Counted from the first letter of the stretch, positions 20,808 through 54,975 are shown. The stretch is DNA of 64,000 nt from Anaerolineales bacterium (GCA_048054495.1 JBGMQN010000071.1:9632-73631), one strand, 5' to 3'. Notes: generated by a model from the letters alone, not told the origin. Made by a program: numbers and translations.

Positions 20808-20810
20808 CTA

Positions 20811-22706: not shown

Positions 22707-22710
22707 AACC

Positions 22711-23445: not shown

Positions 23446-23449
23446 AAGC

Positions 23450-25207: not shown

Positions 25208-25210
25208 ATC

Positions 25211-26278
25211 ATGATCGCCAATCATCTGCCGCGTATCAGACATATTCTGCCCATGACAAGGGTGCAGCGCGAGCGGAAGCTCGACGGACACGGTGTTTTG
25301 ACCGTCAGGGTAAGGGAGAAAGTGCAGTCGACGGATGTGATCGGCGAAGTGCAGCCGCAGCCGCAACATCACTTTCTCGATCTGGCCTCCGCCTTGGGCG
25401 TTTCGGATGCGGAGGCGGCGCGCCTGCTGCGGGTGGACCCGGGGAGCGACGTGGAGGCGGGCCAAGTGTTGGCGGGCCCGGTCGGGATCGCCAGGCGTAC
25501 GGTACGTGCCCCAGCCAATGGCAAGGTGCTTTCCCTCTCCAGAGGCCGAGTGCTGTTTGAGGCTCGCGAAGGGGCGCGCGCAGTTCATGCAGGGGTGCCG
25601 GGGGAGGTCACCGCCTCGGATGGCGCGAGCTCGATCATCATCTCGGCCGTCGGGGCGCTTGTCCAAGGAGCATGGGGAAACGGTCGCCGGGGATGGGGAG
25701 TATTGCGTGACGTGGGTGAAAGCCGGAGTGCGCGGTTGGAGCCTAGCGAACTCGACATGATTCTTCGAGGCGCGGTTGTACTGGTAGGTGTCGTCGACAA
25801 TCCCAAATCCCTTCATCAAGCCACGGAAATTCCCATCCGCGGCCTGGTATGTGGAAGTATGGCGTCGGAGCTCATTCCCACCGCACTGCACATGCCATAC
25901 CCGATCTTGTTGACGGAGGGTTTTGGGGCAATCCCGATGAACTCCCCGACCTACGACCTGCTGAGCACCAATGCGGGAAGGGAAGCGAACGTGGAAGCGT
26001 CGCTGCTGGAACCCTATAAGCCCCAACAGCCCGAAATCCTGGTACCGCTACCTGCCACGCAGGACCTTAAGAGTCCGGAACGAATCGTGCAACTGGTGCC
26101 TGGAGTGCGAGTGCGGGCCTTGAGAGCGCCTCATGTCGGGGCGGTCGGAAGCTTGCTGCATTTGATGCCGGGGGTCGAGTCCTTCCCAAGCGGCATATTG
26201 GCGCGCAGCGCGATGATCGAGCTGGAGGGAATTGGCTCTGTCGCCGTGCCGCTGAGTAACCTGGAAGTGATTGCTTGA
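25211..26278 (+). CDS. Hypothetical soluble protein (possible N-terminal barrel-sandwich/lipoyl-like hybrid domain)
   Basis: Listed ORF starting 3 nt after the previous stop. The segment DVEAGQVLAGPVGIARRTVRAPANGKVLSLSRGRVLFEA resembles barrel-sandwich hybrid motifs, but the match is weak. Confidence 0.45.
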   Translation: MIANHLPRIRHILPMTRVQRERKLDGHGVLTVRVREKVQSTDVIGEVQPQPQHHFLDLASALGVSDAEAARLLRVDPGSDVEAGQVLAGPVGIARRTVRAPANGKVLSLSRGRVLFEAREGARAVHAGVPGEVTASDGASSIIISAVGALVQGAWGNGRRGWGVLRDVGESRSARLEPSELDMILRGAVVLVGVVDNPKSLHQATEIPIRGLVCGSMASELIPTALHMPYPILLTEGFGAIPMNSPTYDLLSTNAGREANVEASLLEPYKPQQPEILVPLPATQDLKSPERIVQLVPGVRVRALRAPHVGAVGSLLHLMPGVESFPSGILARSAMIELEGIGSVAVPLSNLEVIA

Positions 26279-26370
26279 TGGAACATGGTTCGGAACTTGC
26301 AACTTATGGCGTACCCGATCGCGTTGTGTCGCGTTCACGCGGATCTTCTTGGGCGTGAGGGGAGGAAATT

Positions 26371-26961
26371 ATGGCAGAAGACTTTGAAGTTACTGGGGGG
26401 CTGCCCGAGGACGATGAGAATCGCACCTTTGTAATTGCGGCCGCTGGGCTCGGGGGCTTGATCGTGCTGAGTCTCATATGTCTGGGGGTCTACGCCCTGG
26501 TCTTGCAGCCACGGCAGCGCGAAGCTGCCTTGCAGCAACCGACCAGTATCGTTCTCACAAATACGGCTGTAGCGCTTGGTCTGACGCAGACCGCGGAGGC
26601 AGCGGATTTTACGCCAATACCCACGGAGCCGCCTCCGACATTCACACCTGCGCCCATTGACACGGATACTCCGGTGCCGACTCAGGTGGTTGTGCTGCCA
26701 ACCGACACACCTACTCCTACCCCATTTACGACGTTGCCAACGGTGGCGCCCCTAACGGCCACCGCCGCGGCCCAGATGACGCAGACCGCTTTGGCGATCG
26801 CGGGCGGGGCCGGGTCGCCCACACCTCATCCAACGGAGCTCCCCGTGGCCGGCTTTGCTGATGATGTCGGACTGCCCGGACTGGTGGGCCTGGCGGCAAT
26901 ATTCCTGGCGGCGATTTTCCTCACCAGAAGGTTGCGGTCGAGAACCACGCCTGCAAGCTGA
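26371..26961 (+). CDS. Bitopic Thr/Pro-rich protein with a C-terminal anchor-like tail
   Basis: SD gggagga upstream. N-terminal TM (FVIAAAGLGGLIVLSLICLGVYALVL), a T/P-rich low-complexity middle, and a C-terminal LPVAG...GLVGLAAIFLAAIFLTRRLRSR tail. Confidence 0.6.
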   Translation: MAEDFEVTGGLPEDDENRTFVIAAAGLGGLIVLSLICLGVYALVLQPRQREAALQQPTSIVLTNTAVALGLTQTAEAADFTPIPTEPPPTFTPAPIDTDTPVPTQVVVLPTDTPTPTPFTTLPTVAPLTATAAAQMTQTALAIAGGAGSPTPHPTELPVAGFADDVGLPGLVGLAAIFLAAIFLTRRLRSRTTPAS

Positions 26962-26977
26962 TTGAATAGCGAATCAT

Positions 26978-27011
26978 AAAAGGGGCCGCGCAGCCATGCG
27001 CGGCCCCTTTT
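26978..27011. terminator. Bidirectional rho-independent terminator
   Basis: aaaaGGGGCCGCGC-agccat-GCGCGGCCCCtttt: a 10-bp GC stem with an A-run upstream and a T-run downstream. It sits between convergent operons. Confidence 0.85.
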
Positions 27012-27033
27012 CGATTTCAATTTCAGCGTTAGG

Positions 27034-27537
27034 TTAGTCTGGCAGGCTGAGCTTGGCCAACGTTTCGAACAGCTGCGCGACGCCGTTTCCGTCCAGCGCG
27101 CTGGTCTCCAGATATGGGGCCTGGAGAGAGTTGGCAAATTCCTGCGCTTGCTCTGGCCGTTGGGTGCGTTCCAGATCAATCTTGTTGCCCACCACGATGA
27201 ACGGTTGCTGCTCAACCGCCTCGAGAATCTCGTCCCTCCAGCGGGCGAGGCTAATGAAGGATTCGGGTTCCGTCACGTCGTATACAAGGGCTGCGGCTCG
27301 GCTCCCGCGATAGAAGCCCGCGCGTATTATCTGGAAGCGATCCTGGCCCGCCATGTCCCAGATCGAAAGCTTGACGGTTTGTCCGGACAGATCCACAGTC
27401 TGTGTCTGAAAATCGACCCCAATCGTGGCCACGCGGGTCTGTTCGAATTTCCCTTCACAGAAGCGCCGAATCAGCGACGTCTTACCGACGTTGCCGTTGC
27501 CTGCGACGACTACCTTCAGGACGGGAATGCTGCTCAA
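27034..27537 (-). CDS. Rab/Ras-like small GTPase (not the MglA type)
   Basis: G1 GNGNVGKT, switch I TIGVDF, G3 WDMAGQDRF, YRGSRAAALVYDVT, G4 GNKIDL and G5 ETSAL. 167 aa with no C-terminal Cys prenylation motif. Confidence 0.85.
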   Translation of the reverse strand: MSSIPVLKVVVAGNGNVGKTSLIRRFCEGKFEQTRVATIGVDFQTQTVDLSGQTVKLSIWDMAGQDRFQIIRAGFYRGSRAAALVYDVTEPESFISLARWRDEILEAVEQQPFIVVGNKIDLERTQRPEQAQEFANSLQAPYLETSALDGNGVAQLFETLAKLSLPD

Positions 27538-27540
27538 AGG

Positions 27541-28272
27541 CTACTGGTGACGACCGAGAAAATACTTATGGGGAAATACGAGTTCATCCGGATCGACGGG
27601 TGGGTTGCCTAGCAAGGTTCGGTTGGCTCGCTCAAATAGCAGATGAAGTTCCTCGAGCGATTCCAGCTGATCGGTGGCGGGATCCGTCGAAAATAAGGTC
27701 ATTAGGGTCGTGAACTCTCCCGGCATATAGGCAAGCCACCGCCCGCCTTCGATCTGAGTCGACTGCATGCCCGCGCCGAAGATCTCCTTTGTGGCGGCCC
27801 GGTAGGAAGAAAGCATCGGAACGGCCAGTTCCGCCTCGATCTGGAATTCTCCGATGGTGTTGAGTGGCATACCGGAATCGTTATCATAGACCGAATACCC
27901 AAGCACCTTTGCCACGTTCTTCTGGCGGATGACTATACTCTTGCCTTCGGTGGTGGCCGCTTTCCATTCCTCTGAGTCCGGCGACATTTCGACGTACCGC
28001 TTCACAGTCTGCTGCTCGCGGCGATAGTGGTCATACAGTTCTTGAAATTGGGTGCGGTTTATCTCACCCGTGGCAAACTCCTCGGCCAGCTTATTGATTT
28101 TGCCCTGAACACGCTCCAAGTACTCCTGAGGGTTCTCAAGCGAGGATGGATCGCTGTCTGTAGTAGGTTGGGGGGGAGTTGCCTCAGCGGCCCCTTGCTG
28201 AGGTGCTGCGGGGGCCGTCGGTGACTGGGGCTGAGTTGCGCCCGAAATGAGGTCGCGTAGGCGTTGAAACAT
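27541..28272 (-). CDS. Hypothetical protein with a disordered P/Q-rich N-terminus, a helical region and a Roadblock/LC7-like C-terminal domain (tentative)
   Basis: Start moved to ATG 28272 (MFQRLRDLISG), which lies downstream of a TGcTATAAT promoter. The stop is 3 nt before the GTPase start. The C-terminal ~110 aa (VAKVLGYSVYDNDSGMPLNTIG...GGRWLAYMPGEFTTLMTLFS...) has an alpha-beta pattern reminiscent of MglB/Roadblock. Confidence 0.5.
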   Translation of the reverse strand: MFQRLRDLISGATQPQSPTAPAAPQQGAAEATPPQPTTDSDPSSLENPQEYLERVQGKINKLAEEFATGEINRTQFQELYDHYRREQQTVKRYVEMSPDSEEWKAATTEGKSIVIRQKNVAKVLGYSVYDNDSGMPLNTIGEFQIEAELAVPMLSSYRAATKEIFGAGMQSTQIEGGRWLAYMPGEFTTLMTLFSTDPATDQLESLEELHLLFERANRTLLGNPPVDPDELVFPHKYFLGRHQ

Positions 28273-28293
28273 AACGATTGCCCGATCGCGGGC

Positions 28294-28302
28294 ATTATAG
28301 CA
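28294..28302 (-). promoter_or_regulatory. Extended -10 promoter TGcTATAAT for the Roadblock-like/GTPase operon
   Basis: The reverse complement of attatagca gives TGCTATAAT, ending 21 nt upstream of ATG 28272. Confidence 0.55.
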
Positions 28303-28336
28303 TGGGGGGCATATGCATAAGAAATGGGAAGAGAGT

Positions 28337-29785
28337 CTAGTCCGCTTGAGCCACCTGACGGCCGTATTCGAGCAAAGACTCGAGGGCTCCGGGCTCGCGA
28401 GCCTCAGCGTAAACACGGAGCAGCGGCTCCGTTCCGGAGGGTCGGACGAGCAGCCAGGAATCGTCGTCCATATGGAATTTCACCCCATCCCGGTTGCTAA
28501 CGCGCTCCACCTGGAGCTTACCGATAGCCTCTGGAGCGCCGTCAAGGAGCCGCGCGGAGAGCTGTTCCCTGGGAACCGGTCGCGACAGCCGCAGGTCCAG
28601 TCGCCCGTAGTGCGAGGGCCCAACATCCTTCAGGAGCCCATCGACCAGATCTTTCAACGTCGATCCAGTTGAGGCAACCATTTCCAATACCAGCAGGCTG
28701 ATGAGGATTCCATCGCCCTCCGGGATATGGCCCTTGAAAGATATACCTCCAGACTCCTCGCCGCCGATAAGTACGTCTTCGCGGAGCATACAATCGGCGA
28801 TGTGGTCGAATCCGACCGGGGTCTCTATGACCTCCAGACCATACTTTTTGCCGAGCCGATTGATCATCTGGGTCGTCGATACGGTCTTGACGATTTTGCC
28901 GCTCCAACCCCGGTGCTCCACCAGGTATTTCAACGCCAACGACATCAGGCGGTGAGGATCGACGAACTCTCCCCGCCCATCCATGGCTCCGATTCGATCC
29001 GCATCGCCATCCGTAGCCAGACCAAGCTCACCGTGACCTGCCGCGATGCATCCAGCCAGCGCTCCCAGATAGCGAGCGATGGGCTCGGGGTGAATACCTC
29101 CGAAACCGGGGTTCATCTCCCCTCGCACCTCCGTTACTTCGCAACCCGTTCCCTGGAGGATTCCCTTGATCTGACCGCGACCGGATCCGTACATGGAATC
29201 CACCGCAAGGTGCTGAGGATTTTCGGCAATAGCATCGAAATCGATCAGGGAGCGCAAGTGATCATGGTAGATCGAAGTGGGATTGAAACGTTCGATCAAT
29301 CCCGTTTCCTTCGCTTGCCCGTAGTCCATCAGGTTCGGACCCCGACCGCGAGATTCGTTATCGTTGAAGTAGAACTCGACCCGGCGGCACTGTTCCCTAG
29401 CGGCGGCGCCTCCGTAGGCGGCCTTGAGCTTGAGCCCGTTGTAGCGCGGTGCATTGTGTGAGGCGGTGATCATGATGCCCGCGATCGCGCCCAGGTGACG
29501 CACGGCATACGAAATACAGGGGGTCGGAACGTCGGCGCTGGTCAAATACACCTTGATGCCATTCCCAGCCAAGACGCGTGCCGCCTCGACCGCGAACCTA
29601 TCGGAGAGGAAGCGTGTGTCAAACCCGATAACCACTCGTCGCGCATCCGGAGTCAAGGTCCCGTTAAGCCATTCATCTGCCGCAACCGCGTCCGCAATTG
29701 ACTGGCTCACGAGACGCACGTTGTGGAAAGTAAAGGTATCCGAGATGACTCCCCGCCAGCCATCGGTTCCAAAGGTTATGGGCAT
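28337..29785 (-). CDS. Phosphoglucomutase/phosphomannomutase family protein
   Basis: True start is MPITFGTDGWRG at 29785. Active-site TASHNAPRYNGLK, metal site ATDGDADR, and GGEESGG sugar-binding loop. Confidence 0.9.
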   Translation of the reverse strand: MPITFGTDGWRGVISDTFTFHNVRLVSQSIADAVAADEWLNGTLTPDARRVVIGFDTRFLSDRFAVEAARVLAGNGIKVYLTSADVPTPCISYAVRHLGAIAGIMITASHNAPRYNGLKLKAAYGGAAAREQCRRVEFYFNDNESRGRGPNLMDYGQAKETGLIERFNPTSIYHDHLRSLIDFDAIAENPQHLAVDSMYGSGRGQIKGILQGTGCEVTEVRGEMNPGFGGIHPEPIARYLGALAGCIAAGHGELGLATDGDADRIGAMDGRGEFVDPHRLMSLALKYLVEHRGWSGKIVKTVSTTQMINRLGKKYGLEVIETPVGFDHIADCMLREDVLIGGEESGGISFKGHIPEGDGILISLLVLEMVASTGSTLKDLVDGLLKDVGPSHYGRLDLRLSRPVPREQLSARLLDGAPEAIGKLQVERVSNRDGVKFHMDDDSWLLVRPSGTEPLLRVYAEAREPGALESLLEYGRQVAQAD

Positions 29786-35201: not shown

Positions 35202-36803
35202 CTATTTAGGATCTCGCTTGGGTTGCTCCCGCGGAGTACCGATGAGCAATCCCAGCCGAACGGCAGCCTCTTGAAGTTGGCGCCAGTGAAGGGGATCGAC
35301 CACCACGCTATTGGACCCTAGCTGCTCCCTCAAATAGCGACGGGTGCTTGGCGCCTTCAACAGCAGGTCGAGTATTTGTGGGTCCTCCACATGAAGGATG
35401 GTCTGCCGCTCGATTCTCGCCTCCATCCCGGCCCGCTCCCACCGCTCAAGCGCATTGAGAACGCCTTCTGGCGCTCCCATCTCAGCTAGAGCATTGCGTG
35501 CATGAGCGGCGGTTAGCCCATGGTCTTCAGCGGCATGTAAAGATTGGGCCGTCAGCCGATAATAATAGGCGCCCCCATCCATCCGCTCCCACGAGCAAAG
35601 CCGGGCGAGCTGATAGCGCAGCGTGCGATCCGCATCGCGCGCGATCCGAATGCGACCGTCAGGCCACGCCACCGCCTCACCTTCCTTCGACACGCTCATG
35701 TGCGCATCTGACCCCATGGCCGCTATGAGGCGAAAAGCGGACGGATCGTGGCCAATATCGGCAAGCCCCAGCCATAGCATCGGGCCCGCGATCAAGCGTC
35801 TTAGGTATTGCCCCTCGACCTTGTCCCAGGCCTCGAAGCCATGCAAACTGCTGCCATCTTCGGCGAGTTGCAGGTACCAGCTATCGAATCCTCCGGCCGG
35901 GCGCATGAAGCCTGGATCCACCGCATGCACCGCGTCTACGAAGCTGGATGGCGACCACCAGGTGTTGGCCGGGACCGTGTCAATCAAGTCGAGCGCCGCG
36001 CGCCTGCCTGCCAGCGGATCGTTGGGCCAATCGCCGGTGGGGCTGATTACGCCGGGAGTCTGGGAGAGATCGTTCCATTCGGTCGAGCTCTGCCAGGTAT
36101 CCTGCAGGTGCTCCAATGCTTGATCGCGAGCCATTTGCAGGAAGTCGCGTATGCGCTCTGGGGATCCGAAGATATCCGCTTCTTGCAGCAGACCCTCTAT
36201 CAAAGCCATCGAATCCGGCTGTCGGAGGAAGTCCGACAACCATCTGCGATCTAGCTCTCCTGCCCGACGGTGGGCGGCCAAAATTGTTGTCGCGTCGTCC
36301 ACTGCATAGGTATTCGATGGGATGATTTGTTTCGGATGTGGGGCGGGCTCCCCTAACGGGCGACGCTCAGGGCGGCTCACCTCGGGCAACTTGTCCAACA
36401 GGTCGTCGGGGACGAAACCATATTCTTGAGGTCCTCCGGTGGAGTCGGCGAAGGCCTTTGCCATAAGCCCCCGATACCAGAGCATTTCCAAGGGAGAGGC
36501 CGGCTCCTTCCACGGCTCCAGGCGGTCTCTCTTGCCCGGCCCCATTTCCCTGATCGGGCCAAATTGGCGGACGAGCACCTCCATCGGAGCCCGCCCTCCG
36601 CTCTCAAGCAAGCGTTCCAAGGCATGCCTCGCGTCCCCAGGCAGGGTCTCTAAGATCTCCGGGGTTCGATCCAGCATGGCGCTGGACAGGCCCTGAACCG
36701 TTACGGAGTGTTGATCATTTGGGAGTTCCAGCCCCCAGAGACGGGCGATGACCTTCAGGTGGCCCCGGTCGTGATCCTGGAGGGTCTGGGCGAGCATCTG
36801 CAC
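35202..36803 (-). CDS. Hypothetical 533-aa soluble protein
   Basis: Long ORF with coding-like composition and no motif I can assign. It sits 11 nt downstream of the diacylglycerol-kinase-like gene on the same strand. Confidence 0.55.
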   Translation of the reverse strand: MQMLAQTLQDHDRGHLKVIARLWGLELPNDQHSVTVQGLSSAMLDRTPEILETLPGDARHALERLLESGGRAPMEVLVRQFGPIREMGPGKRDRLEPWKEPASPLEMLWYRGLMAKAFADSTGGPQEYGFVPDDLLDKLPEVSRPERRPLGEPAPHPKQIIPSNTYAVDDATTILAAHRRAGELDRRWLSDFLRQPDSMALIEGLLQEADIFGSPERIRDFLQMARDQALEHLQDTWQSSTEWNDLSQTPGVISPTGDWPNDPLAGRRAALDLIDTVPANTWWSPSSFVDAVHAVDPGFMRPAGGFDSWYLQLAEDGSSLHGFEAWDKVEGQYLRRLIAGPMLWLGLADIGHDPSAFRLIAAMGSDAHMSVSKEGEAVAWPDGRIRIARDADRTLRYQLARLCSWERMDGGAYYYRLTAQSLHAAEDHGLTAAHARNALAEMGAPEGVLNALERWERAGMEARIERQTILHVEDPQILDLLLKAPSTRRYLREQLGSNSVVVDPLHWRQLQEAAVRLGLLIGTPREQPKRDPK

Positions 36804-40753: not shown

Positions 40754-41770
40754 TCAGTCGGGCAGGCCGAGGTTCATCAATTCCTTGCCCGGCCGAAGCT
40801 CCTTGGCATAGGTATCCCACTGAAGGGAGATCTTCATGCCGGCCTTCTCATAAAGTCGCGTGGCCCCCGTAGGGTTCTGACCATCGACACCGAGGCCAAC
40901 CTTTAGTGTGTTGCGTCGCCAGAATTCTCCAAATGAATGCTGAAGGAGCGCGAGCGCAAGCCCTTGCCTTCGCCACGGACGGCGCACACTAAGCGTGCGG
41001 ATCCAACCCATCTCGGGATCATCGTCGGCGCTTGGCCGAGCACGCGCCAGGCCCGCGATCTGATCACCGTCCCAGGCGATGAACCATAACCCGGGATCGT
41101 AAGCAGATTCGTGGAAACTCGAGTGCGACCATCGTTCAAACCCTCGCTCGAATGACTCGGGCACATGTCCCCAGTGATCCTCGAAGGCTTCATCTTCGGC
41201 ACGGTAAACCGCCTCCGCATCCCGGTCACGATCAAACGGCTTGAGTTGGATGTCGTGCGGCCATTTGGGAGACCCAGGGGGTTCTTCAAGATCGATCGTC
41301 ATACGCCAGAAGAAACGGTCCGCGGTATAGCCTCGATCTTCCAGTAGCCGTGCGGAAGGTTGGTGGCCATGGTAGGTGCCGACGCTCATTACGACCCGTG
41401 CGTCGTCAGGCACCCGGTCGAGGACTTGGGCCGCGCGCTGCTCGGCCCACCCTATCAGATAACTGCCGATACCGAGTCCTTCGTGATCTAGGTGCACATT
41501 GCCGAACACCCATGGATGCACAGGAATCTCAGAGGTATCCCAAATCCCAGTCGCACCGACGAGCTCGCCCGGGGCGCTCTCGACAAGCCGGATATTTGAC
41601 TGAGGATCAAACCCGGGCGTTTCCCAATCTGCGCGTGCGTGATCCGCGTTTGTTTCATCGGCGCCAATCACCGCGTTGGCAAAGGCATTGGTGAACTCTA
41701 CGACTCGCTCCAGATCGGCCATGGAGGCTGGGCGGGAAGAATATCCATCGGGTAAAGGATCCACGATCAC
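40754..41770 (-). CDS. Double-GNAT N-acetyltransferase (MshD-like architecture)
   Basis: Two acetyltransferase halves. The C-terminal acetyl-CoA motif is SVRRPWRRQGLALALL. The GTG start overlaps the stop of the upstream paralog (GTGA). Confidence 0.75.
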   Translation of the reverse strand: MIVDPLPDGYSSRPASMADLERVVEFTNAFANAVIGADETNADHARADWETPGFDPQSNIRLVESAPGELVGATGIWDTSEIPVHPWVFGNVHLDHEGLGIGSYLIGWAEQRAAQVLDRVPDDARVVMSVGTYHGHQPSARLLEDRGYTADRFFWRMTIDLEEPPGSPKWPHDIQLKPFDRDRDAEAVYRAEDEAFEDHWGHVPESFERGFERWSHSSFHESAYDPGLWFIAWDGDQIAGLARARPSADDDPEMGWIRTLSVRRPWRRQGLALALLQHSFGEFWRRNTLKVGLGVDGQNPTGATRLYEKAGMKISLQWDTYAKELRPGKELMNLGLPD

Positions 41771-42771
41771 TCCTCAAGCGGCTTACGATAATCCGTCCAA
41801 CGCTTCACTTTTTCGAAACCCATGCTTTCGTAGAGACGAAAGGCGCCGCTGAGGTTCTGAGTGTCCACGCTCAGGGCGGCCTGCTCCATTCCCAGATCAC
41901 TTAACAAGTGGAAGCTCTGCGCGATCAGCGCGCGTGCCAGGCCGCGGCGGCGCCAGGGACGCCGCACGCTGATGCTTTCTGTGTAGCCCCGCTTGCGGTT
42001 GTACTCTTCGTTCTCACGCTCGTCGATGAAATTGAGCACCATGCCGGCCACTCGATCGCCGTCCCAGGCGACCTTCCAGAGCTCGGTGTTGAAAGTTGGC
42101 TCCTCGAGCCATTCTTGAAATGCCTCCTCTGTTTGAGTTGAGTAGCCCCAATGGTCCCTGAAAGCCTCCGCACTGGCATCCCAGATGGGACGAATATGCT
42201 CGTCCCTTACCGGACGGACTTCGAGATCGGGAGGCGTCGGCAGATCGGGCAGTTTGCCATCCAGAGCGCGCGCCATTTCGACCTCGTACCGCACTGGCTC
42301 ATAGCCCTCGCTCCGGTACAGAGCCGCTTTTCCAAGCTCGGTGTCTGCCCCAAAGGTCTGCAAGTAGCGCTCACTGCCTTGCGGATGGCCGGAAGCTATT
42401 TGCAGGAGGCGATGCTCGCACCACCTCAGCATCGTCCTTCCGATCCCTTTTCTTCGCCACTCTGGCAACAGGGTGCCATAGTGCCAATAGATACGATCCC
42501 CCTCAAGCAGTTTTTCCCAGAAGACGCGGCAGTACGCGATCGGTTCGCTGTCAGCTTCAGCGAACAGCATGTCCTGGAAGGGGTCACAGTTCCTAAGATG
42601 GGAGTACGATCGCTGGATGTCCTCAAGTGAGGTCACCTGCTTGATCTGGTCGAAATCCTTTGAGCCCTCGACGATGGCTACGATAGCCGGGTAGTCGAGC
42701 TCTCCCCGGAATCCTCGGAACGTAAGGCCTTCGATCTCTGGCGCATCTTGCAGTTCGACTTGCTGCTGCAT
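41767..42771 (-). CDS. Double-GNAT N-acetyltransferase, paralog of the downstream gene
   Basis: LPEWRRKGIGRTML in the first half and SVRRPWRRRGLARALI in the second. SD aaggaga upstream. Confidence 0.75.
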   Translation of the reverse strand: MQQQVELQDAPEIEGLTFRGFRGELDYPAIVAIVEGSKDFDQIKQVTSLEDIQRSYSHLRNCDPFQDMLFAEADSEPIAYCRVFWEKLLEGDRIYWHYGTLLPEWRRKGIGRTMLRWCEHRLLQIASGHPQGSERYLQTFGADTELGKAALYRSEGYEPVRYEVEMARALDGKLPDLPTPPDLEVRPVRDEHIRPIWDASAEAFRDHWGYSTQTEEAFQEWLEEPTFNTELWKVAWDGDRVAGMVLNFIDERENEEYNRKRGYTESISVRRPWRRRGLARALIAQSFHLLSDLGMEQAALSVDTQNLSGAFRLYESMGFEKVKRWTDYRKPLEE

Positions 42772-42830: not shown

Positions 42831-42859
42831 AAAACAAAAACCGCGGGGGAGGCCCGCGG
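42831..42859 (-). terminator. Rho-independent terminator following the 25-codon ORF
   Basis: Minus strand reads CCGCGGG-cctcc-CCCGCGG followed by tttttgtttt. Confidence 0.75.
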
Positions 42860-42881
42860 CGCGTTGTTTCAGGGTTTCAAT

Positions 42882-43147: not shown

Positions 43148-44176
43148 TCACTCGGCTCTCACCGCGTTAAGCAAATCTGCGAACATCCCATATGCGGTCG
43201 TATCCGGACCCGGATCCGCGCCCATGATCGTGAGATCGCCAAGAACATCGCTGGTGAACGTGATCAGGGATGAGGTCCCACGCACGTGATAGAGTGGGTC
43301 TTCGGGACCGACCCGTTCAGGATGTACCCTGCCTAGCGCCATGCCATTTTCACGCCAACCGCTGCATACCAGCCTCCAGCGCAGCCCGCCTTGCGTGGCG
43401 GCGCGGATCTGAGTTGCATCGATCTCGCCAATTCCGCCACGCTCCACATCTTGGATGCCCAGCGGAAGGTCCATTAGCACGGTTGCCACCGCGGCAACTT
43501 TGATGGCCGCGTCCCAGCCATCGATATCCCCTGAAGGATCGGTCTCCGCGACGCCGATGGCCTGGGCTTCCTCCAGAGCGGTATCAAACGACTTTCCGTC
43601 CTCCATTTCAGACAGCAGGAAGTTTGTCGTCGAATTCAGCACACCCCGAAATGAAGTCAGCTGTGCACCCGGCATGCACTCGCGCCAGGTCGAAAATAAT
43701 GGCGTTCCATCCATTACCGTAGACTCAAAAAGAAATCGCCGGCTCTGGGCTCTTGCGAGCTCGGACAGTGCCTGATATGCATGCACCACGGGACCTTTAT
43801 TGGCCGTGATAGCGTGCATCCCGCGCCGCAGCGCGGTCTCAAGGTAGCCAATCGCCGGCTGCCCGGACTGGTAGTTGACCGGTATGCTTTCAAGGATCGC
43901 CTCCGCCTCGATCTTCTCCAGCAGTTCGGTGATGTCGTTGGAGGCTTGGGCGTGTGTAAGCTCAGAGAGGCTCCCCGCGCTCCGCTTTATTTCGAGCGCA
44001 CGCGCCAGGTCCAATCCTGCTTCATCGTACGCCGCTCCATGCCGTCCAGTGGCTATTGCGACTACGCGCAGGTCCAGCCCGTAGCGTTCTTGAACCTCTG
44101 CGTGCTTGGCTACGATCAGACGCGCAAGCGCTCCGCCCACGTTTCCAAACCCGAGCAGAACCAGCCGTTCCGTCAT
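43148..44176 (-). CDS. hom: Homoserine dehydrogenase (no ACT domain)
   Basis: NAD-binding LLGFGNVGGALARL, and a catalytic-domain pattern (ANKGPV, GVLNSTTNF). Confidence 0.85.
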   Translation of the reverse strand: MTERLVLLGFGNVGGALARLIVAKHAEVQERYGLDLRVVAIATGRHGAAYDEAGLDLARALEIKRSAGSLSELTHAQASNDITELLEKIEAEAILESIPVNYQSGQPAIGYLETALRRGMHAITANKGPVVHAYQALSELARAQSRRFLFESTVMDGTPLFSTWRECMPGAQLTSFRGVLNSTTNFLLSEMEDGKSFDTALEEAQAIGVAETDPSGDIDGWDAAIKVAAVATVLMDLPLGIQDVERGGIGEIDATQIRAATQGGLRWRLVCSGWRENGMALGRVHPERVGPEDPLYHVRGTSSLITFTSDVLGDLTIMGADPGPDTTAYGMFADLLNAVRAE

Positions 44177-44303: not shown

Positions 44304-45023
44304 TCAGACCGGCGGCCAAGGATAGTTACGCCGCGGCCCGGGCTCGGGAAAGTGTGATTCTCGAAGTAGCCAGGAATTCCGCTCCCACAGGGCCCGAATT
44401 TCATTGGAGGAGAGCAACCCTGCGAGTTCCAAGCTAAGTGTCCCCTGATCTTCGAGTTTGGAGCTCAGAGCTTGCAGATCCTTGAGCAAGGCCGATGGGA
44501 TGGCCTCACCTGCAAAGTCCCAGATAACTGTTCGAAGCTTGTGCTCCTCATGAAAGCAAACGCCGTGATCGATCAAATGGATATGGCCCTCCGGCATATG
44601 GATTACGTGCCCAGCCTTGCGATCGGCATTATTTATCAGCACATCGAAGACCGCCGCGGGCCTTAGCAGCTGCTTCTCATCTTCCGAAAAGGTGAAGTAG
44701 TTACGAGTTGGCTTCACATCAAGGTAAAGCTGGAGCGATCCGCCGCCTGCAGGACCGTCCTCGCGAAGGATCGTGGGTGGAACCAGGTCCCATCCGAGAG
44801 CCTCACTGGTTTTGAAGGCAGCCACTTCCCGAAGCGCCAGTGTGCTGCCTGGAAAATCCCAAAGCGGCTGTTCTCCACCCGAGGGCTTGTAAACGGCCGA
44901 CACGGGCCCATTCACGGTGTTTACGTCGACCAGGAATGTGTGGTTAGATCCGACAGCAAACTGTCCCTGGAAAATAATCTCACCCGTGCGCAGGGAATGC
45001 AGAACGGAGGCGTCGGATCTCAT
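44304..45023 (-). CDS. PI3/PI4-kinase-like protein (SCO1664-family-like)
   Basis: Start moved to ATG 45023, because the listed start overlaps the upstream gene by 122 nt. Catalytic-loop-like DVLINNADRKAGHVI and activation-segment-like HLIDHGVCF. Confidence 0.7.
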   Translation of the reverse strand: MRSDASVLHSLRTGEIIFQGQFAVGSNHTFLVDVNTVNGPVSAVYKPSGGEQPLWDFPGSTLALREVAAFKTSEALGWDLVPPTILREDGPAGGGSLQLYLDVKPTRNYFTFSEDEKQLLRPAAVFDVLINNADRKAGHVIHMPEGHIHLIDHGVCFHEEHKLRTVIWDFAGEAIPSALLKDLQALSSKLEDQGTLSLELAGLLSSNEIRALWERNSWLLRESHFPEPGPRRNYPWPPV

Positions 45024-45036
45024 CTTGGAGGGGGAA

Positions 45037-45546
45037 CTAAATCTTGTGCCCGTTGCTCTTGGGACAGAAGTGCCCTTCGGGATCCTTCGGCTCGCCGCAA
45101 TTGCCGCAAATGGGTCGACCTTGACTTGCGACTTCGAGTCCCCAGGTACACATAGCACGGAGCTGTGACCGTGTACACCAGAAGCGGACGACTTCCGATC
45201 CCTCGTCTTCGGATTCGAGCTGACGCGCTACGAGCACCAGCCGGTCGTTCTCTTCGTCGTAACCCAAACCGATGTTACCGACCCGAAACATTGGATCCAG
45301 TGGCTGCTCCAGCTCCATCTCATCGCTGTTGTAATCGGCAGAGGCTTCCGATAGCTCCGGCAATCGTTCACCCAGTTCGTCGAGGAACTCCTCCAAGCCA
45401 ATTGCGAGGGACTGTACCTGATGCTTTTCGACGAGCAGCGTCACGAGTTGGCTCCCCTTGCGCGCCTGAATGTAGAAGACGCGCTTTCCGGGAGGACCGA
45501 CGGCCCCAGCGGTGATCCGGCTGACTGGGTTTAGCTCAACATCCAT
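45037..45546 (-). CDS. DUF3090-like protein with C-terminal zinc ribbon
   Basis: N-terminal FYIQARKGSQLVTLLVEKHQV pattern and C-terminal CGNCGEPKDPEGHFCPKSNGH. Confidence 0.65.
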   Translation of the reverse strand: MDVELNPVSRITAGAVGPPGKRVFYIQARKGSQLVTLLVEKHQVQSLAIGLEEFLDELGERLPELSEASADYNSDEMELEQPLDPMFRVGNIGLGYDEENDRLVLVARQLESEDEGSEVVRFWCTRSQLRAMCTWGLEVASQGRPICGNCGEPKDPEGHFCPKSNGHKI

Positions 45547-45564
45547 GGTGAGGCTTGAGACGTG

Positions 45565-46170
45565 CTACGGGGGCGACGATCGAAGTATAACATTCAGATG
45601 AATAAGCCTGGCGGACCTATCTTCAATGGACAATTCAGAAATCGAGGCCGGCCTAACATCAAGCCGCTGGAACGAATCGATAGGCAAGCCGATGTAGTGA
45701 GCAATGGCCAGCTTGATCGGATCAGCGTGAGAAACGCAGGCGATGGAGCCAGAGTGTTTTGAGCGTAGCCCCTCCAACGTCTCCACGATGCGTGACTGCG
45801 CCTCAAGGAATGATTCCCCTTCCGGAAATCGTGCCAGGGAGGGAGTATATTGGATGGTTGGCCACAGCTTTCGTCGGCGCGCAGCTCGCAAACTAAGCCC
45901 CTCCCAGCGGCCGATCCTCATCTCGCCCAGACCCTGCAGAACGATGACATTCAATCCCTGGATGGCCGCAATCTCATCGGCAGTTTCCGTCGCTCGCTCC
46001 AGCGGACTTGAGTAGACGGCCTGCAACCTTACCGCCCGCAGCATTTCGGCTGCCTCTGCCGCCTGCTCCTTGCCAGCGGCATTCAGGTGCACCCCAGGAA
46101 GCCATCCGGCCAGCTTGCCCTTTTCTACATAGTCGTTCTGGCCGTGCCTGACGAGGTAAATCGTCGTCAT
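45565..46170 (-). CDS. Histidine phosphatase (phosphoglycerate-mutase-like) family protein
   Basis: RHG motif IYLVRHGQNDY, and a second His in CVSHADPIK. The ATG overlaps the rarA stop (ATGA). Confidence 0.8.
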   Translation of the reverse strand: MTTIYLVRHGQNDYVEKGKLAGWLPGVHLNAAGKEQAAEAAEMLRAVRLQAVYSSPLERATETADEIAAIQGLNVIVLQGLGEMRIGRWEGLSLRAARRRKLWPTIQYTPSLARFPEGESFLEAQSRIVETLEGLRSKHSGSIACVSHADPIKLAIAHYIGLPIDSFQRLDVRPASISELSIEDRSARLIHLNVILRSSPP

Positions 46171-47597
46171 GTAGTGCTGCGATCACGGGTGTGGTGCCGC
46201 TTTAGGCTCTGAATCTCGGATTCCGGAAGATCGGGGATTTCAATGAAATTCTCCAGCTCGAGCGCCTGACGCTGGGCACGCCTCCACCGGTCGAGTCGAT
46301 CGGCGACCTGCTGCTCGTAGCCTAGATCTGAGGGGTGGTAGAAGTAGGTGCCGAGCAGCTCTTCTGGCAGGTAGCCTTGGCCGACGAAATGAGCGGTGTG
46401 CTCATGAGGATAGTCATACCCGGCCCCATGGCCCAGGGCAGCCGCATCGCGGCTTGGGTCCTTGAGGTGGTTCGGAACTTCAACTGCCCCCTGTTCTTCG
46501 ATCGATTTAAGGGCTTTGAAGTAGGCCCCCGCGGAGTTGGACTTCGGCGCGGTCGACAAGTACAGCGTGGCTTCCACGAGTGGATATATTCCTTCGGGCA
46601 GACCAACAAATTGGAATGCTTGCATGGCGGCGGAAGTCACCACCAGACCCATTGGATCTGCCAGTCCAATATCCTCAGAAGCCAGGATCAACAGCCTTCT
46701 AAGAATGAAGCGCGGATCCTCCCCGGCATACAGCATCTTCGCCAGCCAAAACAGAGCGGCGTCTGGATCGGAACCGCGTACTGACTTGATGTAGGCCGAA
46801 ATAGTGTCGTAGTGGGCGTCGCCATCCTTGTCATACAGCACGGCTCTGCGCTGAATCGATTCCTGAGCGACTTCGAGCGTGATGTTAATCGTGTCCTCAT
46901 GGGTGGATTCAACCGCCAGTTCCAGCGCATTGAGCGCGTTGCGGGCGTCCCCGCCAGCCACGCGCACCAAGTGAGCCAGGGCATCCGACTCAATCGTCAC
47001 GTTCCTCGTGCCGTAGCCGCGCTGCTCGTCCGCCAGGGCCGCTCGAATAATGCGTTCGACCTCGTCGTCCTGCAGCGGTCGCAGCTGAAATACACGGGAA
47101 CGGGAGACCAGCGCGCCGATGACCTCGAAATGAGGATTTTCAGTGGTTGCTCCGATGAGAGTGATCATCCCCTGTTCGACCTGAGGGAGAAGGGCATCCT
47201 GCTGGGCTTTGTTCCAGCGGTGCACTTCGTCCACGAAAAGAATGGTTCTTTGGCCGTGGTACTTGCGGCGCTCCTGTGCGGCGCTAATGACCCTGCGGAG
47301 CTCGGCCTTGCCGGCCAGGACGGCAGACAGGTTCTCAAAGGCTGAAGCGGTCGTGTTGGCAATGATCATTGCCAGCGTTGTCTTACCCGTACCGGGAGCT
47401 CCCCACAGAATTATGGAGGAGAACAATCGATCGCTCTCGATCGCTCTGCGGAGCAAGCGGCCTTCGCCAATAATGTGTTCTTGGCCTTCGAATTCACTGA
47501 GCTTCTTAGGCCGCATGCGAGCGGCGAGCGGTGCCTCTATGACAAAACGCTCGTCTAAAGCGTGGTCAAAGAGGTCCTTGGAGCGCATATCGCGCAT
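46167..47597 (-). CDS. rarA: Replication-associated recombination protein A (AAA+ ATPase)
   Basis: Walker A GAPGTGKTT, Walker B LFVDEVHRWNK, and a MgsA C-terminal pattern (YDxxSAxxKSxRGSDPDAALFWLAKML). Start moved to ATG 47597 or 47588 to remove an Arg-rich extension. Confidence 0.9.
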   Translation of the reverse strand: MRDMRSKDLFDHALDERFVIEAPLAARMRPKKLSEFEGQEHIIGEGRLLRRAIESDRLFSSIILWGAPGTGKTTLAMIIANTTASAFENLSAVLAGKAELRRVISAAQERRKYHGQRTILFVDEVHRWNKAQQDALLPQVEQGMITLIGATTENPHFEVIGALVSRSRVFQLRPLQDDEVERIIRAALADEQRGYGTRNVTIESDALAHLVRVAGGDARNALNALELAVESTHEDTINITLEVAQESIQRRAVLYDKDGDAHYDTISAYIKSVRGSDPDAALFWLAKMLYAGEDPRFILRRLLILASEDIGLADPMGLVVTSAAMQAFQFVGLPEGIYPLVEATLYLSTAPKSNSAGAYFKALKSIEEQGAVEVPNHLKDPSRDAAALGHGAGYDYPHEHTAHFVGQGYLPEELLGTYFYHPSDLGYEQQVADRLDRWRRAQRQALELENFIEIPDLPESEIQSLKRHHTRDRSTT

Positions 47598-47629
47598 TGT
47601 ACCAGTCGCTATGATAAGATGACGGCGTT

Positions 47630-48280
47630 TTGCAGGAAGCGGAGATCGTGCTGGCCTCCGCCTCGCCTCGCAGGCAGGAACTAATCGCACTGACGGGCTG
47701 GGATGTGAGAATAGCAGCGGCGGAGGTAGATGAGCGCAGGCAGCAGGACGAGGGCCCGCGGGATATGACGCGGCGGCTGGCCTTAGCCAAGGCGAAGGCC
47801 GCGGGCGGCGAAGCCGGTCTGATTCTCGGAGCAGACACAGTGGTGGTCGTTGGAGAGCAGCTGCTCGGCAAGCCGCTGGACCTTGGGGATGCCAGGCAGA
47901 TGCTTGAGGCTCTGAGGGGTCGCAGCCATCGGGTGGTCACCAGCATCGCGCTCCTCGATCTGGATTCTGGCATGCAAGTCGTAGATACCTGTGAAAGTCG
48001 TGTTCCAATGAGACGATTCAATGAGGCCGATCTAGATCGCTACCTGGCCGGCGGCAATCCGCTCGACAAGGCCGGATCCTATGCCATCCAAGATAAGGAA
48101 TTCAGGCCGGTCGATGCGGCCCGCATGGAAGATTGCTTCGCGAATGTAATGGGACTGCCACTCTGCCACGTCGTGCGGAATCTCCCCCAGGCGCCCCCGG
48201 TCGACGTTCCGGTCGCATGCCAGGCACACACAGGTTACGAGTGCCCAATCTATTCAGAAGTTCTCGAGGGAAACCTATGA
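47630..48280 (+). CDS. maf: Maf-like nucleoside triphosphate pyrophosphatase
   Basis: IVLASASPRRQELI, GADTVVV and KAGSYAIQ motifs. The stop overlaps the PBP start (ATGA). Confidence 0.88.
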   Translation: MQEAEIVLASASPRRQELIALTGWDVRIAAAEVDERRQQDEGPRDMTRRLALAKAKAAGGEAGLILGADTVVVVGEQLLGKPLDLGDARQMLEALRGRSHRVVTSIALLDLDSGMQVVDTCESRVPMRRFNEADLDRYLAGGNPLDKAGSYAIQDKEFRPVDAARMEDCFANVMGLPLCHVVRNLPQAPPVDVPVACQAHTGYECPIYSEVLEGNL

Positions 48281-52728: not shown

Positions 52729-54975
52729 TCAGCGGCCGAGTTGAGCGAAGTAAATCTGATCCCCGGCTGCCACAAATAGATCATTGGGAGGCGCCGCGGT
52801 GATGGCAGTTACCTCGGCTTCGAAGGTCGTGGGGTATTGCGCCTGATATACGAGCCGCATACTGTAGTGGAAGACCGTACCTTCCATCCCGTCCAGGAAG
52901 AACAGCGAAGGTTCTGGAGGCGGGGAGTATACGGAGCTTATGGGTTCGGCGCCCAAGATCGTGGCCTGTGGACCGAATCCGGCTCGTTCGTCCTGAAACT
53001 GTGGCTTCGATTCGCATTCGACTCGAATGCGAACGTTGCCTTCTACCGTGCTCTCTACTTCCCTGCGACATCGATCAATTCCGCCATCCGCGTATAGGAT
53101 GATAAGCTCGTCTTGGGCAAGTGCCAAGTCAATCGCCGTTCCTAGTTCTCGAACTTCTTCGACGAAGTAAAGGGCGGGGGAACCACTAAAAAGGCCGTCG
53201 GCTGCGTCGTAGATCCAGACCGCGTTCCTAACTGGATCCAGGACGTAAAGGTCGTCACCGAATACTTCTATGGCTTGAATCCTTCCCCATCCTACATCGG
53301 GTGCAGCTAGCTGGCCGGTGAGCGGATCGGCTCCGGGAGCACAGTACAGAAGGGAGGCGTTTGCATCGATTGCTACCACTCCTTCCGTGCCCAGGGCGCC
53401 GGGCTCGCGCTGGATCACCATGCCAACCGGCTGGCCAAAGTCAGGAATACTGTCAGCGCCGGCCAGGCACTGAAACTGGTTATCGATCTCATATCCACGC
53501 CCTGTGGCCCAGGCGTGCCAGATGGTCATCGTCCCTCGGTCATAGGCGTAGAGGTCGGTTGCCGTAGCCGCAACGGAGACCAGCTCGGCCTTCGGTCCGA
53601 AGCCCCCACTCACCGCAGGCACAAAGTTTAATCGGACAACCCGATCCAGCCCGTCCATTGCCGCTTGTACCTCGCTGCGAAGGGAGATCGATCCGTCCGT
53701 GGTCTGATAGCTCTCAGCCAGGTCGAGCCACTGAGAGGCCGTAACCCAATCTGGCCGCGATTCCTCACCGGGCGGCTTGAGTTGGGCGGCGATTACGGAT
53801 GATTGCGCCTGAGCCAGGTAACTATCAAATTGCTCTACACGGCCCTGCTTGAAGTAAATTAGGCTGGAAATGCCGACTACGAGGATCGGCACTGCCGCGG
53901 CCGTGAAGGCCAGCAAGTTGGGCGAAAATTCATCAAACTTCTGGGGGTCTAGCGTCCCGGGAATCAAGCGGACGATAACCTCAATCATGAGGCGCGAGGC
54001 TCGCCTTGTGATGATCCTCAGTCGGAAGGCCAGCTGGCGGGCCCAGATCCTGGGTGTGTCGTTCTCGAAGTCAGCGGGATCGTCCTTTGGGGTTTTAGTA
54101 TCCTGTACCTTGGACCGTGGACCCGATCCAACAACCCCGATTGCGGGAGGCTGGTCAGGTGAATGCCCACCCGCTGGTTCATGCTCAACCGCTTGGGAAC
54201 CAGGAGTGCTTACACTCGCAGGCCTGGCTTGGACAGCGGGAGAGGGGTGGCTGGGATACGAAGGCCCTGCCGGCTGCTTTTGAACCTGGGCCGCCGCCGA
54301 AACCGTCGCGCCTGGCCGGGATTCTCCTGCAGCGGATCGCGCCGAGGGTTTCCCCGGGACCTGGATCACCAAGCCCGTGATGTCTCGATCGGCTCCGGCC
54401 ACCAAACGATCGGATACCTGTTCAAGGCCCAGGCTGGCGAGTCCCGTGAGGGAAACGTCGGACCACGGTACGTCGTCTGCCGCGGTGAGAATGATGAGAT
54501 CGGAGGGCTGCAGCTCGAGATGCTGGAACTGAATCATCGGGGCCAGCGAGCTGCCGAGGGGACGCTTGGAGCCATTCATGCGACTCACGGTTCCCGATCG
54601 AATCAAAATCGTCGCACCTGCTCCGCACTCCGAGAAGTACAGGTCCTGGCCGCGGAGCGCACCCACCACCATGCTTGCTTCAAGAGCGCCATCGAGCAGC
54701 ACTTGATTCACAGCCAAGGTTGCCTGACGCAAAGCAGCGGTAACGGATCCAGGAGTTCTAAAGAAGGCTTGCGCGCCGACCTGCGCCAGCCTCGAAGCAC
54801 GACCTTCACCCGCATTACCGAGTAGTTTGAGGCTGACAAAGAGAAAATCGTGGCTGCGCCCTCGCGCCGCTTTGCGTGGGGGCGACAGCGCAAGCGTGCC
54901 GGGCGGAGGGGAACTCCGTCCCTCTCCGCCTGCGATGTGCAACAGGCTGATGTTTGCTTTTACAGGCTTAGTCAC
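52729..54975 (-). CDS. Large membrane protein: N-terminal PP2C/SpoIIE-like (apparently degenerate) domain, Pro-rich linker, TM, and C-terminal beta-propeller-like domain
   Basis: GTG start. The N-terminal pattern is FVSLKL...GSVTAALRQATLAVNQ...MVVGALRGQDLYFSECGAGATILIRSG.. with no obvious metal-binding Asp pairs. One TM is LLAFTAAAVPILVVGISSLIYF. The C-terminal part has repeated blade-like segments (DLYAYD, LLYCAPG, DLYVLD, LIILYADG, LFFLDG, DLFVAAG). Confidence 0.5.
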   Translation of the reverse strand: MTKPVKANISLLHIAGGEGRSSPPPGTLALSPPRKAARGRSHDFLFVSLKLLGNAGEGRASRLAQVGAQAFFRTPGSVTAALRQATLAVNQVLLDGALEASMVVGALRGQDLYFSECGAGATILIRSGTVSRMNGSKRPLGSSLAPMIQFQHLELQPSDLIILTAADDVPWSDVSLTGLASLGLEQVSDRLVAGADRDITGLVIQVPGKPSARSAAGESRPGATVSAAAQVQKQPAGPSYPSHPSPAVQARPASVSTPGSQAVEHEPAGGHSPDQPPAIGVVGSGPRSKVQDTKTPKDDPADFENDTPRIWARQLAFRLRIITRRASRLMIEVIVRLIPGTLDPQKFDEFSPNLLAFTAAAVPILVVGISSLIYFKQGRVEQFDSYLAQAQSSVIAAQLKPPGEESRPDWVTASQWLDLAESYQTTDGSISLRSEVQAAMDGLDRVVRLNFVPAVSGGFGPKAELVSVAATATDLYAYDRGTMTIWHAWATGRGYEIDNQFQCLAGADSIPDFGQPVGMVIQREPGALGTEGVVAIDANASLLYCAPGADPLTGQLAAPDVGWGRIQAIEVFGDDLYVLDPVRNAVWIYDAADGLFSGSPALYFVEEVRELGTAIDLALAQDELIILYADGGIDRCRREVESTVEGNVRIRVECESKPQFQDERAGFGPQATILGAEPISSVYSPPPEPSLFFLDGMEGTVFHYSMRLVYQAQYPTTFEAEVTAITAAPPNDLFVAAGDQIYFAQLGR

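Follow-up and report, generated by a model that had tools for sequence, protein, structure and literature searches.

A run of four co-directional genes occupies the minus strand at positions 44304-47597 of a 64,000-nucleotide (nt) stretch of Anaerolineales DNA (GCA_048054495.1, JBGMQN010000071.1:9632-73631), the whole of which is called the window here. Three of the four encode a histidine phosphatase, a DUF3090 protein, and a kinase-like protein of the SCO1664 family, and this locus is the Chloroflexota version of a known, uncharacterized actinobacterial gene set, SCO1664/DUF3090/MSMEG_4193. The most upstream gene, rarA (46167-47597), encodes 476 amino acids (aa) from its ATG and matches the Pfam families MgsA_C (203.6 bits), AAA_assoc_2 (103 bits), and AAA (50 bits). 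Its TGA overlaps the ATG of the phosphatase gene (45565-46170; 201 aa) as ATGA at 46167-46170. A spacer of 18 nt (45547-45564) separates the phosphatase from the DUF3090 gene (45037-45546; 169 aa), and one of 13 nt (45024-45036) separates the latter from the kinase gene (44304-45023; 239 aa from the ATG at 45023). The chain, the overlap, and both gaps are present in the open reading frame (ORF) listing and the sequence just as an earlier interpretation of this DNA, the sequence-only reading, had described them, and the motifs listed there (NNADRKAGH, IDHG, CGNCG...HFCPKSNGH, and LVRHGQ) all occur in the translations. Independent gene calls on a Logan contig whose sequence matches this region exactly likewise yield products of 476, 201, 169, and 239 aa. 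A longer kinase ORF, starting at a GTG and reaching to 45158, would overlap DUF3090 and is unsupported by the independent calls. The nearest database proteins come from metagenome-assembled genomes (MAGs) of Anaerolineales and Anaerolineae, where NCBI already lists them as "DUF3090 domain-containing protein" and "SCO1664 family protein."

Searches with family hidden Markov models (HMMs) score the kinase at 261.1 bits against TIGR03843 (cut-off 172.4), and the DUF3090 protein, over its full length, at 168.6 bits against TIGR03847 (cut-off 117.25) and 161.2 bits against PF11290 (cut-off 27). For the phosphatase, TIGR03848 is the top family match by 60 bits, with a score of 174.5 bits that lies below the cut-off of 203.85. 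The three TIGRFAMs accessions that the sequence-only reading had named are the correct families for the trio, although only the first two models score above their cut-offs. Phosphatases adjacent to DUF3090 score 284-302 bits against TIGR03848 in Actinobacteria and 191-243 bits in other Chloroflexota. Because these scores and that of the window protein form a continuum, we regard the window phosphatase as a divergent orthologue of the MSMEG_4193 family.

A library-wide HMMER search for DUF3090 relatives returned 1787 clusters at 50% identity. For loci, one genome per GTDB species was scanned with a single peptide pattern derived from an alignment of 14 DUF3090 sequences, and this one pattern found at least 599 confirmed loci in the species-representative genomes. 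The best 80 of these all belong to Chloroflexota (Anaerolineales, Bellilinea, Roseilinea, Thermoflexales, Chloroflexaceae, and Herpetosiphonaceae), a sample in which the scan gives no breadth across phyla. The set is therefore common outside Actinobacteria, and its occurrence there is not the notable circumstance it had been taken for, being widespread in Chloroflexota.

Gene order was compared in 83 loci, the best 80 and three from Actinobacteria, in which the window proteins were located by tblastn; the denominators given here and below count loci with enough flanking sequence. In 79 of 79 loci the kinase gene comes after DUF3090 and is read from the same strand, at a distance of 250 bp or less in 73. 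This pairing is far beyond chance, and the pair is conserved and vertically inherited. In 23 of 73 loci, spread over Anaerolineales, Chloroflexaceae, Herpetosiphonaceae, and Actinobacteria, the gene immediately before DUF3090 is that of the phosphatase. The trio, as had been anticipated, is syntenic in other genomes of both phyla, and the constant unit in Chloroflexota is the pair of DUF3090 and kinase. At loci with no adjacent phosphatase the upstream gene is variable, with examples that include an Asp/Glu racemase with a C26 peptidase, a divergent methylmalonyl-CoA mutase, a Fic gene, and a GGDEF gene. Outer neighbors are unrelated between loci, and the genes around the pair serve metabolism or housekeeping, with no mobile or defense genes among them. 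In Bellilinea-type loci (L017-L020) the Asp/Glu racemase gene, often together with a C26 gamma-glutamyl peptidase gene, lies directly upstream of DUF3090, and the representative of cluster P0246 is a putative Asp_Glu_race-DUF3090 fusion.

The idea of a mobile element was checked against plasmids and phages and rejected, as the three matches are all mislabeled chromosomal or chromosome-like sequence. The 11.85 Mb "plasmid" NZ_LT559118.1 looks like a mislabeled Nonomuraea chromosome, and the "plasmid" NZ_LR134462.1, a Tsukamurella fragment, looks chromosomal. The record MT835969.1 (locus L091, "UNVERIFIED: Bacteriophage sp.") is 14.9 kb long with 72% GC and carries a histidine phosphatase gene together with a DUF3090-kinase pair whose genes overlap; the record resembles a piece of actinobacterial chromosome more than a phage.

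Actinobacterial contigs show the order His_Phos_1, DUF3090, and then a protein of 230-283 aa that has no Pfam matches, with 5-nt gaps or overlaps between the genes. This third protein aligns to the window kinase at 41-43% identity. The same order is found in Tsukamurella and in Nonomuraea. The wider Tsukamurella context runs from uppP through the histidine phosphatase, DUF3090, and SCO1664 genes to mshC, 3.2 kb away, followed by PAC2 and metH. In Streptosporangiales-like contigs PAC2 and metH follow the trio, and no mshC lies within 8 kb. In a published account (PMC4255298), SCO1664 of actinobacteria is "invariably closely linked" to mshC; given these contigs, "invariably" is too strong a word for a linkage that is nevertheless real in some orders. 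In transposon screens, BCG (bacille Calmette-Guérin) mutants in Rv2134c were mildly depleted under rifampicin below its minimum inhibitory concentration (sub-MIC), as were uvrA and rnhC mutants. Two screens have picked up MSMEG_4192: transposon mutants in it were over-represented under dibucaine, and it was listed among the interactors of ClpC1. A literature search, with subscription journals outside its reach, found no functional study of Rv2133c, Rv2134c, SCO1664-1666, or DUF3090, and no paper that gives the trio a biochemical role, in agreement with what the sequence-only reading had said of it.

The window kinase scores 23.6 bits against Pfam PI3_PI4_kinase, under the gathering score of 27.1. 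It carries Lys46 in the motif AVYKP, a catalytic loop NNADRKAGH (D134 and H139), and a Mg-binding motif IDHG (D152). The best Foldseek matches in the PDB to its AlphaFold2 model (predicted local distance difference test, pLDDT, 85.6) are the catalytic domains of the human type II phosphatidylinositol 4-kinases, PI4KII-alpha and PI4KII-beta (E 6.7e-8; TMq 0.59-0.63, 4hnd). Further matches, after PI4KII, are PI3Ks, PI4KIII, Rio1, and the HipA-like CtkA (E 1.1e-4), and eukaryotic-like protein kinases are also among them. An hhalign comparison with a catalytic fragment of PI4K2A, itself checked against 4hnd, gave an E value of 2.4e-5 and a probability of 75% over 70 columns only. It pairs GSLQLF...NNADRKxGH...IDHGxCF of the kinase with GSFQLF...RNTDRGNDN...IDNGLAF of PI4K2A; by eye, AVYKP can be matched to AVFKP, the site of the ATP-binding lysine. 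Fifty-nine kinase positions are invariant across Chloroflexota and Actinobacteria, all of the catalytic ones (K46, D134-R135-K136, H139, and D152-H153-G154) included. Because these residues are invariant across phyla, the protein looks like an active kinase, not a pseudokinase. It has neither the CCPCC palmitoylation insert nor any other membrane-binding segment of PI4KII, and no HipA family in Pfam or NCBIfam matches it. We conclude from the model that it is a minimal protein with a predicted type II phosphatidylinositol 4-kinase-like fold. The literature search yielded nothing usable on bacterial type II PI4K homologues, on inositol lipids of Anaerolineae, or on a phosphatidylinositol phosphate (PIP) phosphatase.

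The AlphaFold2 model of the DUF3090 protein (pLDDT 94.7) consists of a first repeat of four strands and a helix, a second repeat of three strands and a helix, and a C-terminal CxxC...HxC knuckle. The predicted zinc ligands in the window protein are C147, C150, H159, and C161, followed by a C-terminal N165-G166-H167. In about eight of 63 DUF3090 representatives the Cys ligands are lost, and N165 and G166 are retained in 62-63 of the 63. Since some members lose the Cys ligands and the NG(H) stays, the zinc knuckle would seem to be optional or dispensable, in a protein that the literature lists as a putative metal-binding protein. Conserved residues of the family are R22, Q27, E40, K41, Q43, D97, R121, R144, N165, and G166. 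The protein is acidic (pI 4.7 for the window member; family median pI 4.8 and median net charge -10), which disfavors nucleic-acid binding. No Ser, Thr, or Tyr is invariant in the DUF3090 alignment. The best candidate for a phospho-acceptor, T36 (Ser or Thr in 90% of sequences), and T125 (in 81%) stand at equivalent structural positions of the two repeats. Foldseek found no significant relative of the model among solved structures, its top, non-significant matches being Whirly single-stranded DNA-binding proteins (E values of 0.09 or more, TM-scores of 0.42 or less), and a sequence-profile search of the PDB found nothing below E 0.06. As far as the model allows a judgment, the fold is apparently new among solved structures.

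The phosphatase matches Pfam His_Phos_1 over its full length at 166 bits, and LVRHGQ, LERA, GEMR, and SHAD can be read in its translation. We take its catalytic residues, as a branch-1, PGAM-type enzyme, to be the RHG motif (R9-H10), R59, E83, and H148. The nearest characterized relatives are the phosphoserine phosphatase PspA, PhoE, and CobC; PspA is the closest solved one (E 2e-17), with PhoE and CobC only marginally further away. Fusions of His_Phos_1 to DUF3090 occur in two independent clusters at 50% identity, P0247 and P0373, and argue for a physical or functional link of the phosphatase to DUF3090; no such fusion was seen among the fetched loci. The counterpart in Mycobacterium tuberculosis, Rv2135c, has weak and unspecific acid phosphatase activity (PMC3866925), with a Km of about 10 mM on p-nitrophenyl phosphate, phosphoenolpyruvate, fructose-6-phosphate, and glycerol-1-phosphate, and no phosphoglycerate mutase activity.

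The coupling to rarA had also been singled out as notable. Across the loci compared it is a narrow trait, since rarA lies upstream in 13 of 65 loci (directly adjacent in 11, nearby in two), all from close Anaerolineales relatives. It is missing at the phosphatase-bearing Chloroflexota loci L027, L033, L076, and L081 and at the three actinobacterial loci counted, and no RarA-type gene adjoins the trio in other actinobacterial gene tables or annotation. Because the linkage is limited to close relatives, we see the position of rarA as a local quirk of gene order, and rarA is probably not part of the system. The window RarA passes the cut-off of NF009881 (PRK13341.1-2) at 703 bits, covering positions 2-443 of a 736-position profile. 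The C-terminal region of that "fusion" family, about 290 residues, is absent from the window protein. A RarA-phosphatase fusion was entertained and rejected, RarA being a stand-alone protein of about 475 aa in 14 of 14 loci with a near-full-length rarA match.

A commoner neighbor than rarA is hom, the homoserine dehydrogenase gene, which stands downstream of the kinase and co-directional with it in 48 of 73 loci. In the window hom lies at 43148-44176 (minus strand), 127 nt downstream of the kinase, and scores 309.9 bits against NF004912, below the cut-off of 373. A consensus scan, whose terminator hairpins are pattern matches only and no more numerous than expected from shuffling of the region, found no hairpin between rarA and hom. 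It places the first on the minus strand after hom, at 42840-42860, where a GC-rich stem is followed by TTTTGTTTT. Since this first hairpin lies beyond hom, the co-directional run probably extends to hom and may comprise five genes, and hom may be co-transcribed with the kinase here. We regard rarA and hom as housekeeping neighbors that share the direction of the pair, not as parts of the system. With the Maf start of the 210-aa gene call, a gap of about 50 nt (47598-47647) separates rarA from the divergent maf gene. Two divergent promoters would have scarcely any space there, and the scan showed no sigma-70-like site in this gap. A homoserine and methionine theme, with hom beside the pair in Chloroflexota and metH a few kb downstream of the trio in Actinobacteria, may be meaningful or may reflect inherited gene order. 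Two adjacent and overlapping tandem-GNAT genes (40754-41770 and 41767-42771), with weak likeness to MshD (38 bits, cut-off 163), have counterparts that recur downstream of hom in related Anaerolineales loci.

The window as a whole is an ordinary chromosomal region. Its genes include those for a 2-oxoacid dehydrogenase complex, citrate synthase, UvrC, LexA, GuaA, RsgA, CoaE, Maf, and homoserine dehydrogenase, a PBP2-like penicillin-binding protein recognized by its Pfam domains, and the two tandem-GNAT proteins, and there is no sign of a mobile element or defense island among them. A role in defense was tried and rejected, as PADLOC gives the trio a single match of 20 bits, between the kinase and the candidate family PDC-M66A (E 7e-5), and none for DUF3090 or the phosphatase.

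The reading that we prefer, quite possibly right and offered tentatively, is a kinase/phosphatase cycle on one hydroxyl-bearing substrate, probably a soluble metabolite, with DUF3090 as an obligate partner. An ATP-dependent kinase would phosphorylate a hydroxyl of a polyol-, sugar-, or hydroxy-amino-acid-type metabolite. DUF3090, the obligate non-kinase subunit, would bind or present the ligand or its phosphorylated form. The histidine phosphatase, a third and less tightly linked component beside the DUF3090-kinase core, would remove the phosphate, or shift it as a mutase, to give a controlled cycle of phosphorylation and dephosphorylation. We infer the single shared substrate, its metabolite nature, and the role of DUF3090 from several lines taken together. 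A metabolite is favored because small stand-alone kinases of the superfamily and bacterial branch-1 phosphatases mostly act on small molecules, because the nearest relatives of the phosphatase (PspA, PhoE, and CobC) are small-molecule enzymes, and because Rv2135c hydrolyzes small phosphoesters, though weakly. It is favored also because DUF3090, though acidic, keeps a cationic patch and has no invariant phospho-acceptor, and because the neighbors are metabolic genes. A site for an anion or phosphate would suit DUF3090, since the protein is acidic yet keeps R22, K41, R121, and R144.

Several points weigh against this cycle on a metabolite. That the conserved DUF3090 residues cluster into one site is an assumption, and the proposed substrate is a class rather than a given compound. 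The Km of about 10 mM and the lack of mutase activity in Rv2135c suit a specific metabolite or a macromolecule equally well. The phosphatase does not adjoin the pair in 50 of 73 loci, as judged by adjacency only. Protein kinases (CtkA, Rio1, and eukaryotic-like enzymes) are among the structural matches of the window kinase, and a constant, non-enzymatic-looking partner, overlapping genes, and an enzyme-partner fusion also fit a switch at the level of protein.

In such a switch the kinase would phosphorylate DUF3090, or a third protein with DUF3090 as adaptor, and the PGAM-type enzyme would reset it. We take this account, the main rival, seriously and consider it rather unlikely. The adjacency of DUF3090 and kinase in 79 of 79 loci, often with stop/start overlap, the phosphatase-DUF3090 fusions, the presence of CtkA and Rio1 among the Foldseek matches, and the poor performance of Rv2135c on small molecules all speak for it, and the histidine phosphatase superfamily does include the protein phosphatases SixA, Sts-1, and PGAM5. 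Yet DUF3090 offers no invariant Ser, Thr, or Tyr (T36 reaches 90% and T125 81%), the nearest structural relatives of the kinase are lipid head-group kinases rather than protein kinases, and in most Chloroflexota loci the phosphatase is not beside the pair. A narrower reading is inositol-conjugate metabolism, type II phosphatidylinositol 4-kinase being the best fold match and sharing catalytic motifs with the window kinase. The kinase would then act on an inositol ring, in phosphatidylinositol (PI), glucosaminyl inositol (GlcN-Ins), or mycothiol precursors, and the phosphatase would be MshA2, the PIP-to-PI enzyme, or both. Supporting this are the reported linkage of SCO1664 with mshC in actinobacteria, mshC at 3.2 kb from the Tsukamurella trio, and an adjacent gene of the mycothiol-dependent isomerase family in locus L084. 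MshA2, which acts on N-acetylglucosaminyl inositol phosphate (GlcNAc-Ins-P), is named only as "a phosphatase" in current papers. On the other side, Chloroflexota carry the set widely although we know of no report of mycothiol from them, the Streptosporangiales-like contigs have no mshC within 8 kb, the kinase lacks the palmitoylated insert and the membrane-binding parts of PI4KII, and the role of DUF3090 goes unexplained. In favor, Morii and colleagues are reported to have described, in 2010 and 2014, bacterial PI as made via PIP with subsequent dephosphorylation. On balance we hold inositol-conjugate metabolism to be decidedly unlikely. Its boldest version, with the DUF3090-kinase pair as the prokaryotic counterpart of type II PI4K acting on an inositol conjugate, the phosphatase as the missing MshA2 and/or PIP-to-PI enzyme, and DUF3090 as a ligand-presenting subunit of novel fold, is a long shot.

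The gene neighborhood suggests two further substrates or partners. Given that 48 of 73 loci have hom directly after the kinase and co-directional with it, and that no hairpin was found in between here, the kinase might make O-phosphohomoserine or O-phosphoserine and the phosphatase reverse this, tuning the Thr, Met, and Cys branch points. In Actinobacteria metH, and sometimes mshC, a Cys ligase gene, lie within a few kb, and among solved structures it is PspA, a phosphoserine phosphatase, that comes nearest to the window enzyme (E 2e-17). We would nevertheless be surprised if hydroxy-amino-acid phosphorylation proved correct, as hom accompanies the pair within Anaerolineae only, an arrangement that may be inherited, the margin of PspA over PhoE and CobC is slight, and Actinobacteria have a canonical thrB. 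To our knowledge, moreover, no enzyme with the PI3/4-kinase fold acts on amino acids. A joint role with RarA in replication restart or DNA metabolism, in which DUF3090 would be a Whirly- or PUR-like nucleic-acid binder regulated by phosphorylation, draws on the overlap of the rarA stop with the phosphatase start, on the 11 related loci with rarA adjacent and two with it nearby, on the Whirly proteins as best (non-significant) structural matches of DUF3090, and on the depletion of BCG Rv2134c mutants under sub-MIC rifampicin in the manner of uvrA and rnhC mutants. It is most improbable, because the linkage in 13 of 65 loci involves close relatives only and was seen in none of the other Chloroflexota or Actinobacteria examined, the Whirly matches have E values of at least 0.09 and TM-scores of at most 0.42, and the strong acidity of DUF3090 across its family (pI about 4.8, net charge -10) does not favor nucleic-acid binding. 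A toxin-antitoxin-like module, with a growth-arresting HipA-like kinase neutralized by the small acidic DUF3090, we find hardly credible. Actinobacterial loci do have a small acidic gene immediately upstream of, and overlapping, a gene of PI3/4-kinase fold, a few family members carry a precomputed match to Pfam PF20613, presumably a HipA-like family, and the weak PADLOC match to PDC-M66A (E 7e-5) points the same way. Against these, the pair occurs once per examined locus in a conserved housekeeping chromosomal context in two phyla, the "plasmid" and "phage" matches are mislabeled chromosomal fragments, and Pfam and NCBIfam give no HipA family match.

Outside the locus, a mostly plus-strand run of ORFs with few family assignments at 19429-28416 could be a multi-gene system. 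It comprises a DUF6754 gene (19429-20178), three ORFs with no match (20175-20807, 20811-22706 with 631 aa, and 22711-23445), a gene matching PF13941, "MutL protein" (23450-25207), and three more ORFs with no match (25211-26278, 26371-26961, and 27541-28416, the last on the minus strand). A 748-aa minus-strand ORF at 52729-54975, near PP2C phosphatase and FHA-domain genes, has no Pfam match on record, and a 533-aa minus-strand ORF at 35202-36803 has no NCBIfam match.

The gene set is a core-genome signature of Actinobacteria, M. tuberculosis included (Rv2133c-Rv2135c), and is widespread in Chloroflexota too. What is added here is the two-gene core, the relation of the kinase to type II PI4K, the acidic DUF3090 protein with its apparently new fold, and the phosphatase fusions. 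The unit to study is the DUF3090-kinase pair, and rarA can leave the model. Were the substrate to be an inositol conjugate, the pair would fill a gap in the biosynthesis of mycothiol or phosphatidylinositol and would bear on the origin of eukaryotic PI4KII.

Among known systems, the closest is the actinobacterial set SCO1664/DUF3090/MSMEG_4193 (Rv2133c-Rv2135c), with which the window shares the three families, their order, and their tight spacing. The host phylum differs, being Actinobacteria there and Chloroflexota (Anaerolineales) here, as do the neighbors, which are uppP, mshC, PAC2, and metH in the one and rarA and hom in the other. The actinobacterial phosphatases score 284-302 bits against TIGR03848, whereas the window protein, at 174.5 bits, falls under the cut-off. 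In addition, four of five aligned actinobacterial kinases have a basic, Pro-rich N-terminal extension that is absent from the window kinase. Rv2135c is a branch 1 histidine phosphatase in the same position of the trio as the window phosphatase, but it carries RHA where the window protein has RHG. PI4KII-alpha and -beta share AV[FY]KP, GS[FL]QL[FY], N[NT][AT]DR, and ID[HN]G with the window kinase, but have lipid-binding elements and a palmitoylated insert, neither of which is found in its 239 aa, and their catalytic loop ends in Asn rather than His; the window kinase differs further in its constant pairing with DUF3090 and its sub-gathering Pfam score. Ser/Thr kinases of the HipA/CtkA type have the atypical PI3/4-kinase-like fold in common with the window kinase, and the small partner gene upstream of the latter resembles a toxin-antitoxin arrangement, but the window kinase is much smaller, and its setting is that of the conserved core genome, not a mobile and patchy one.

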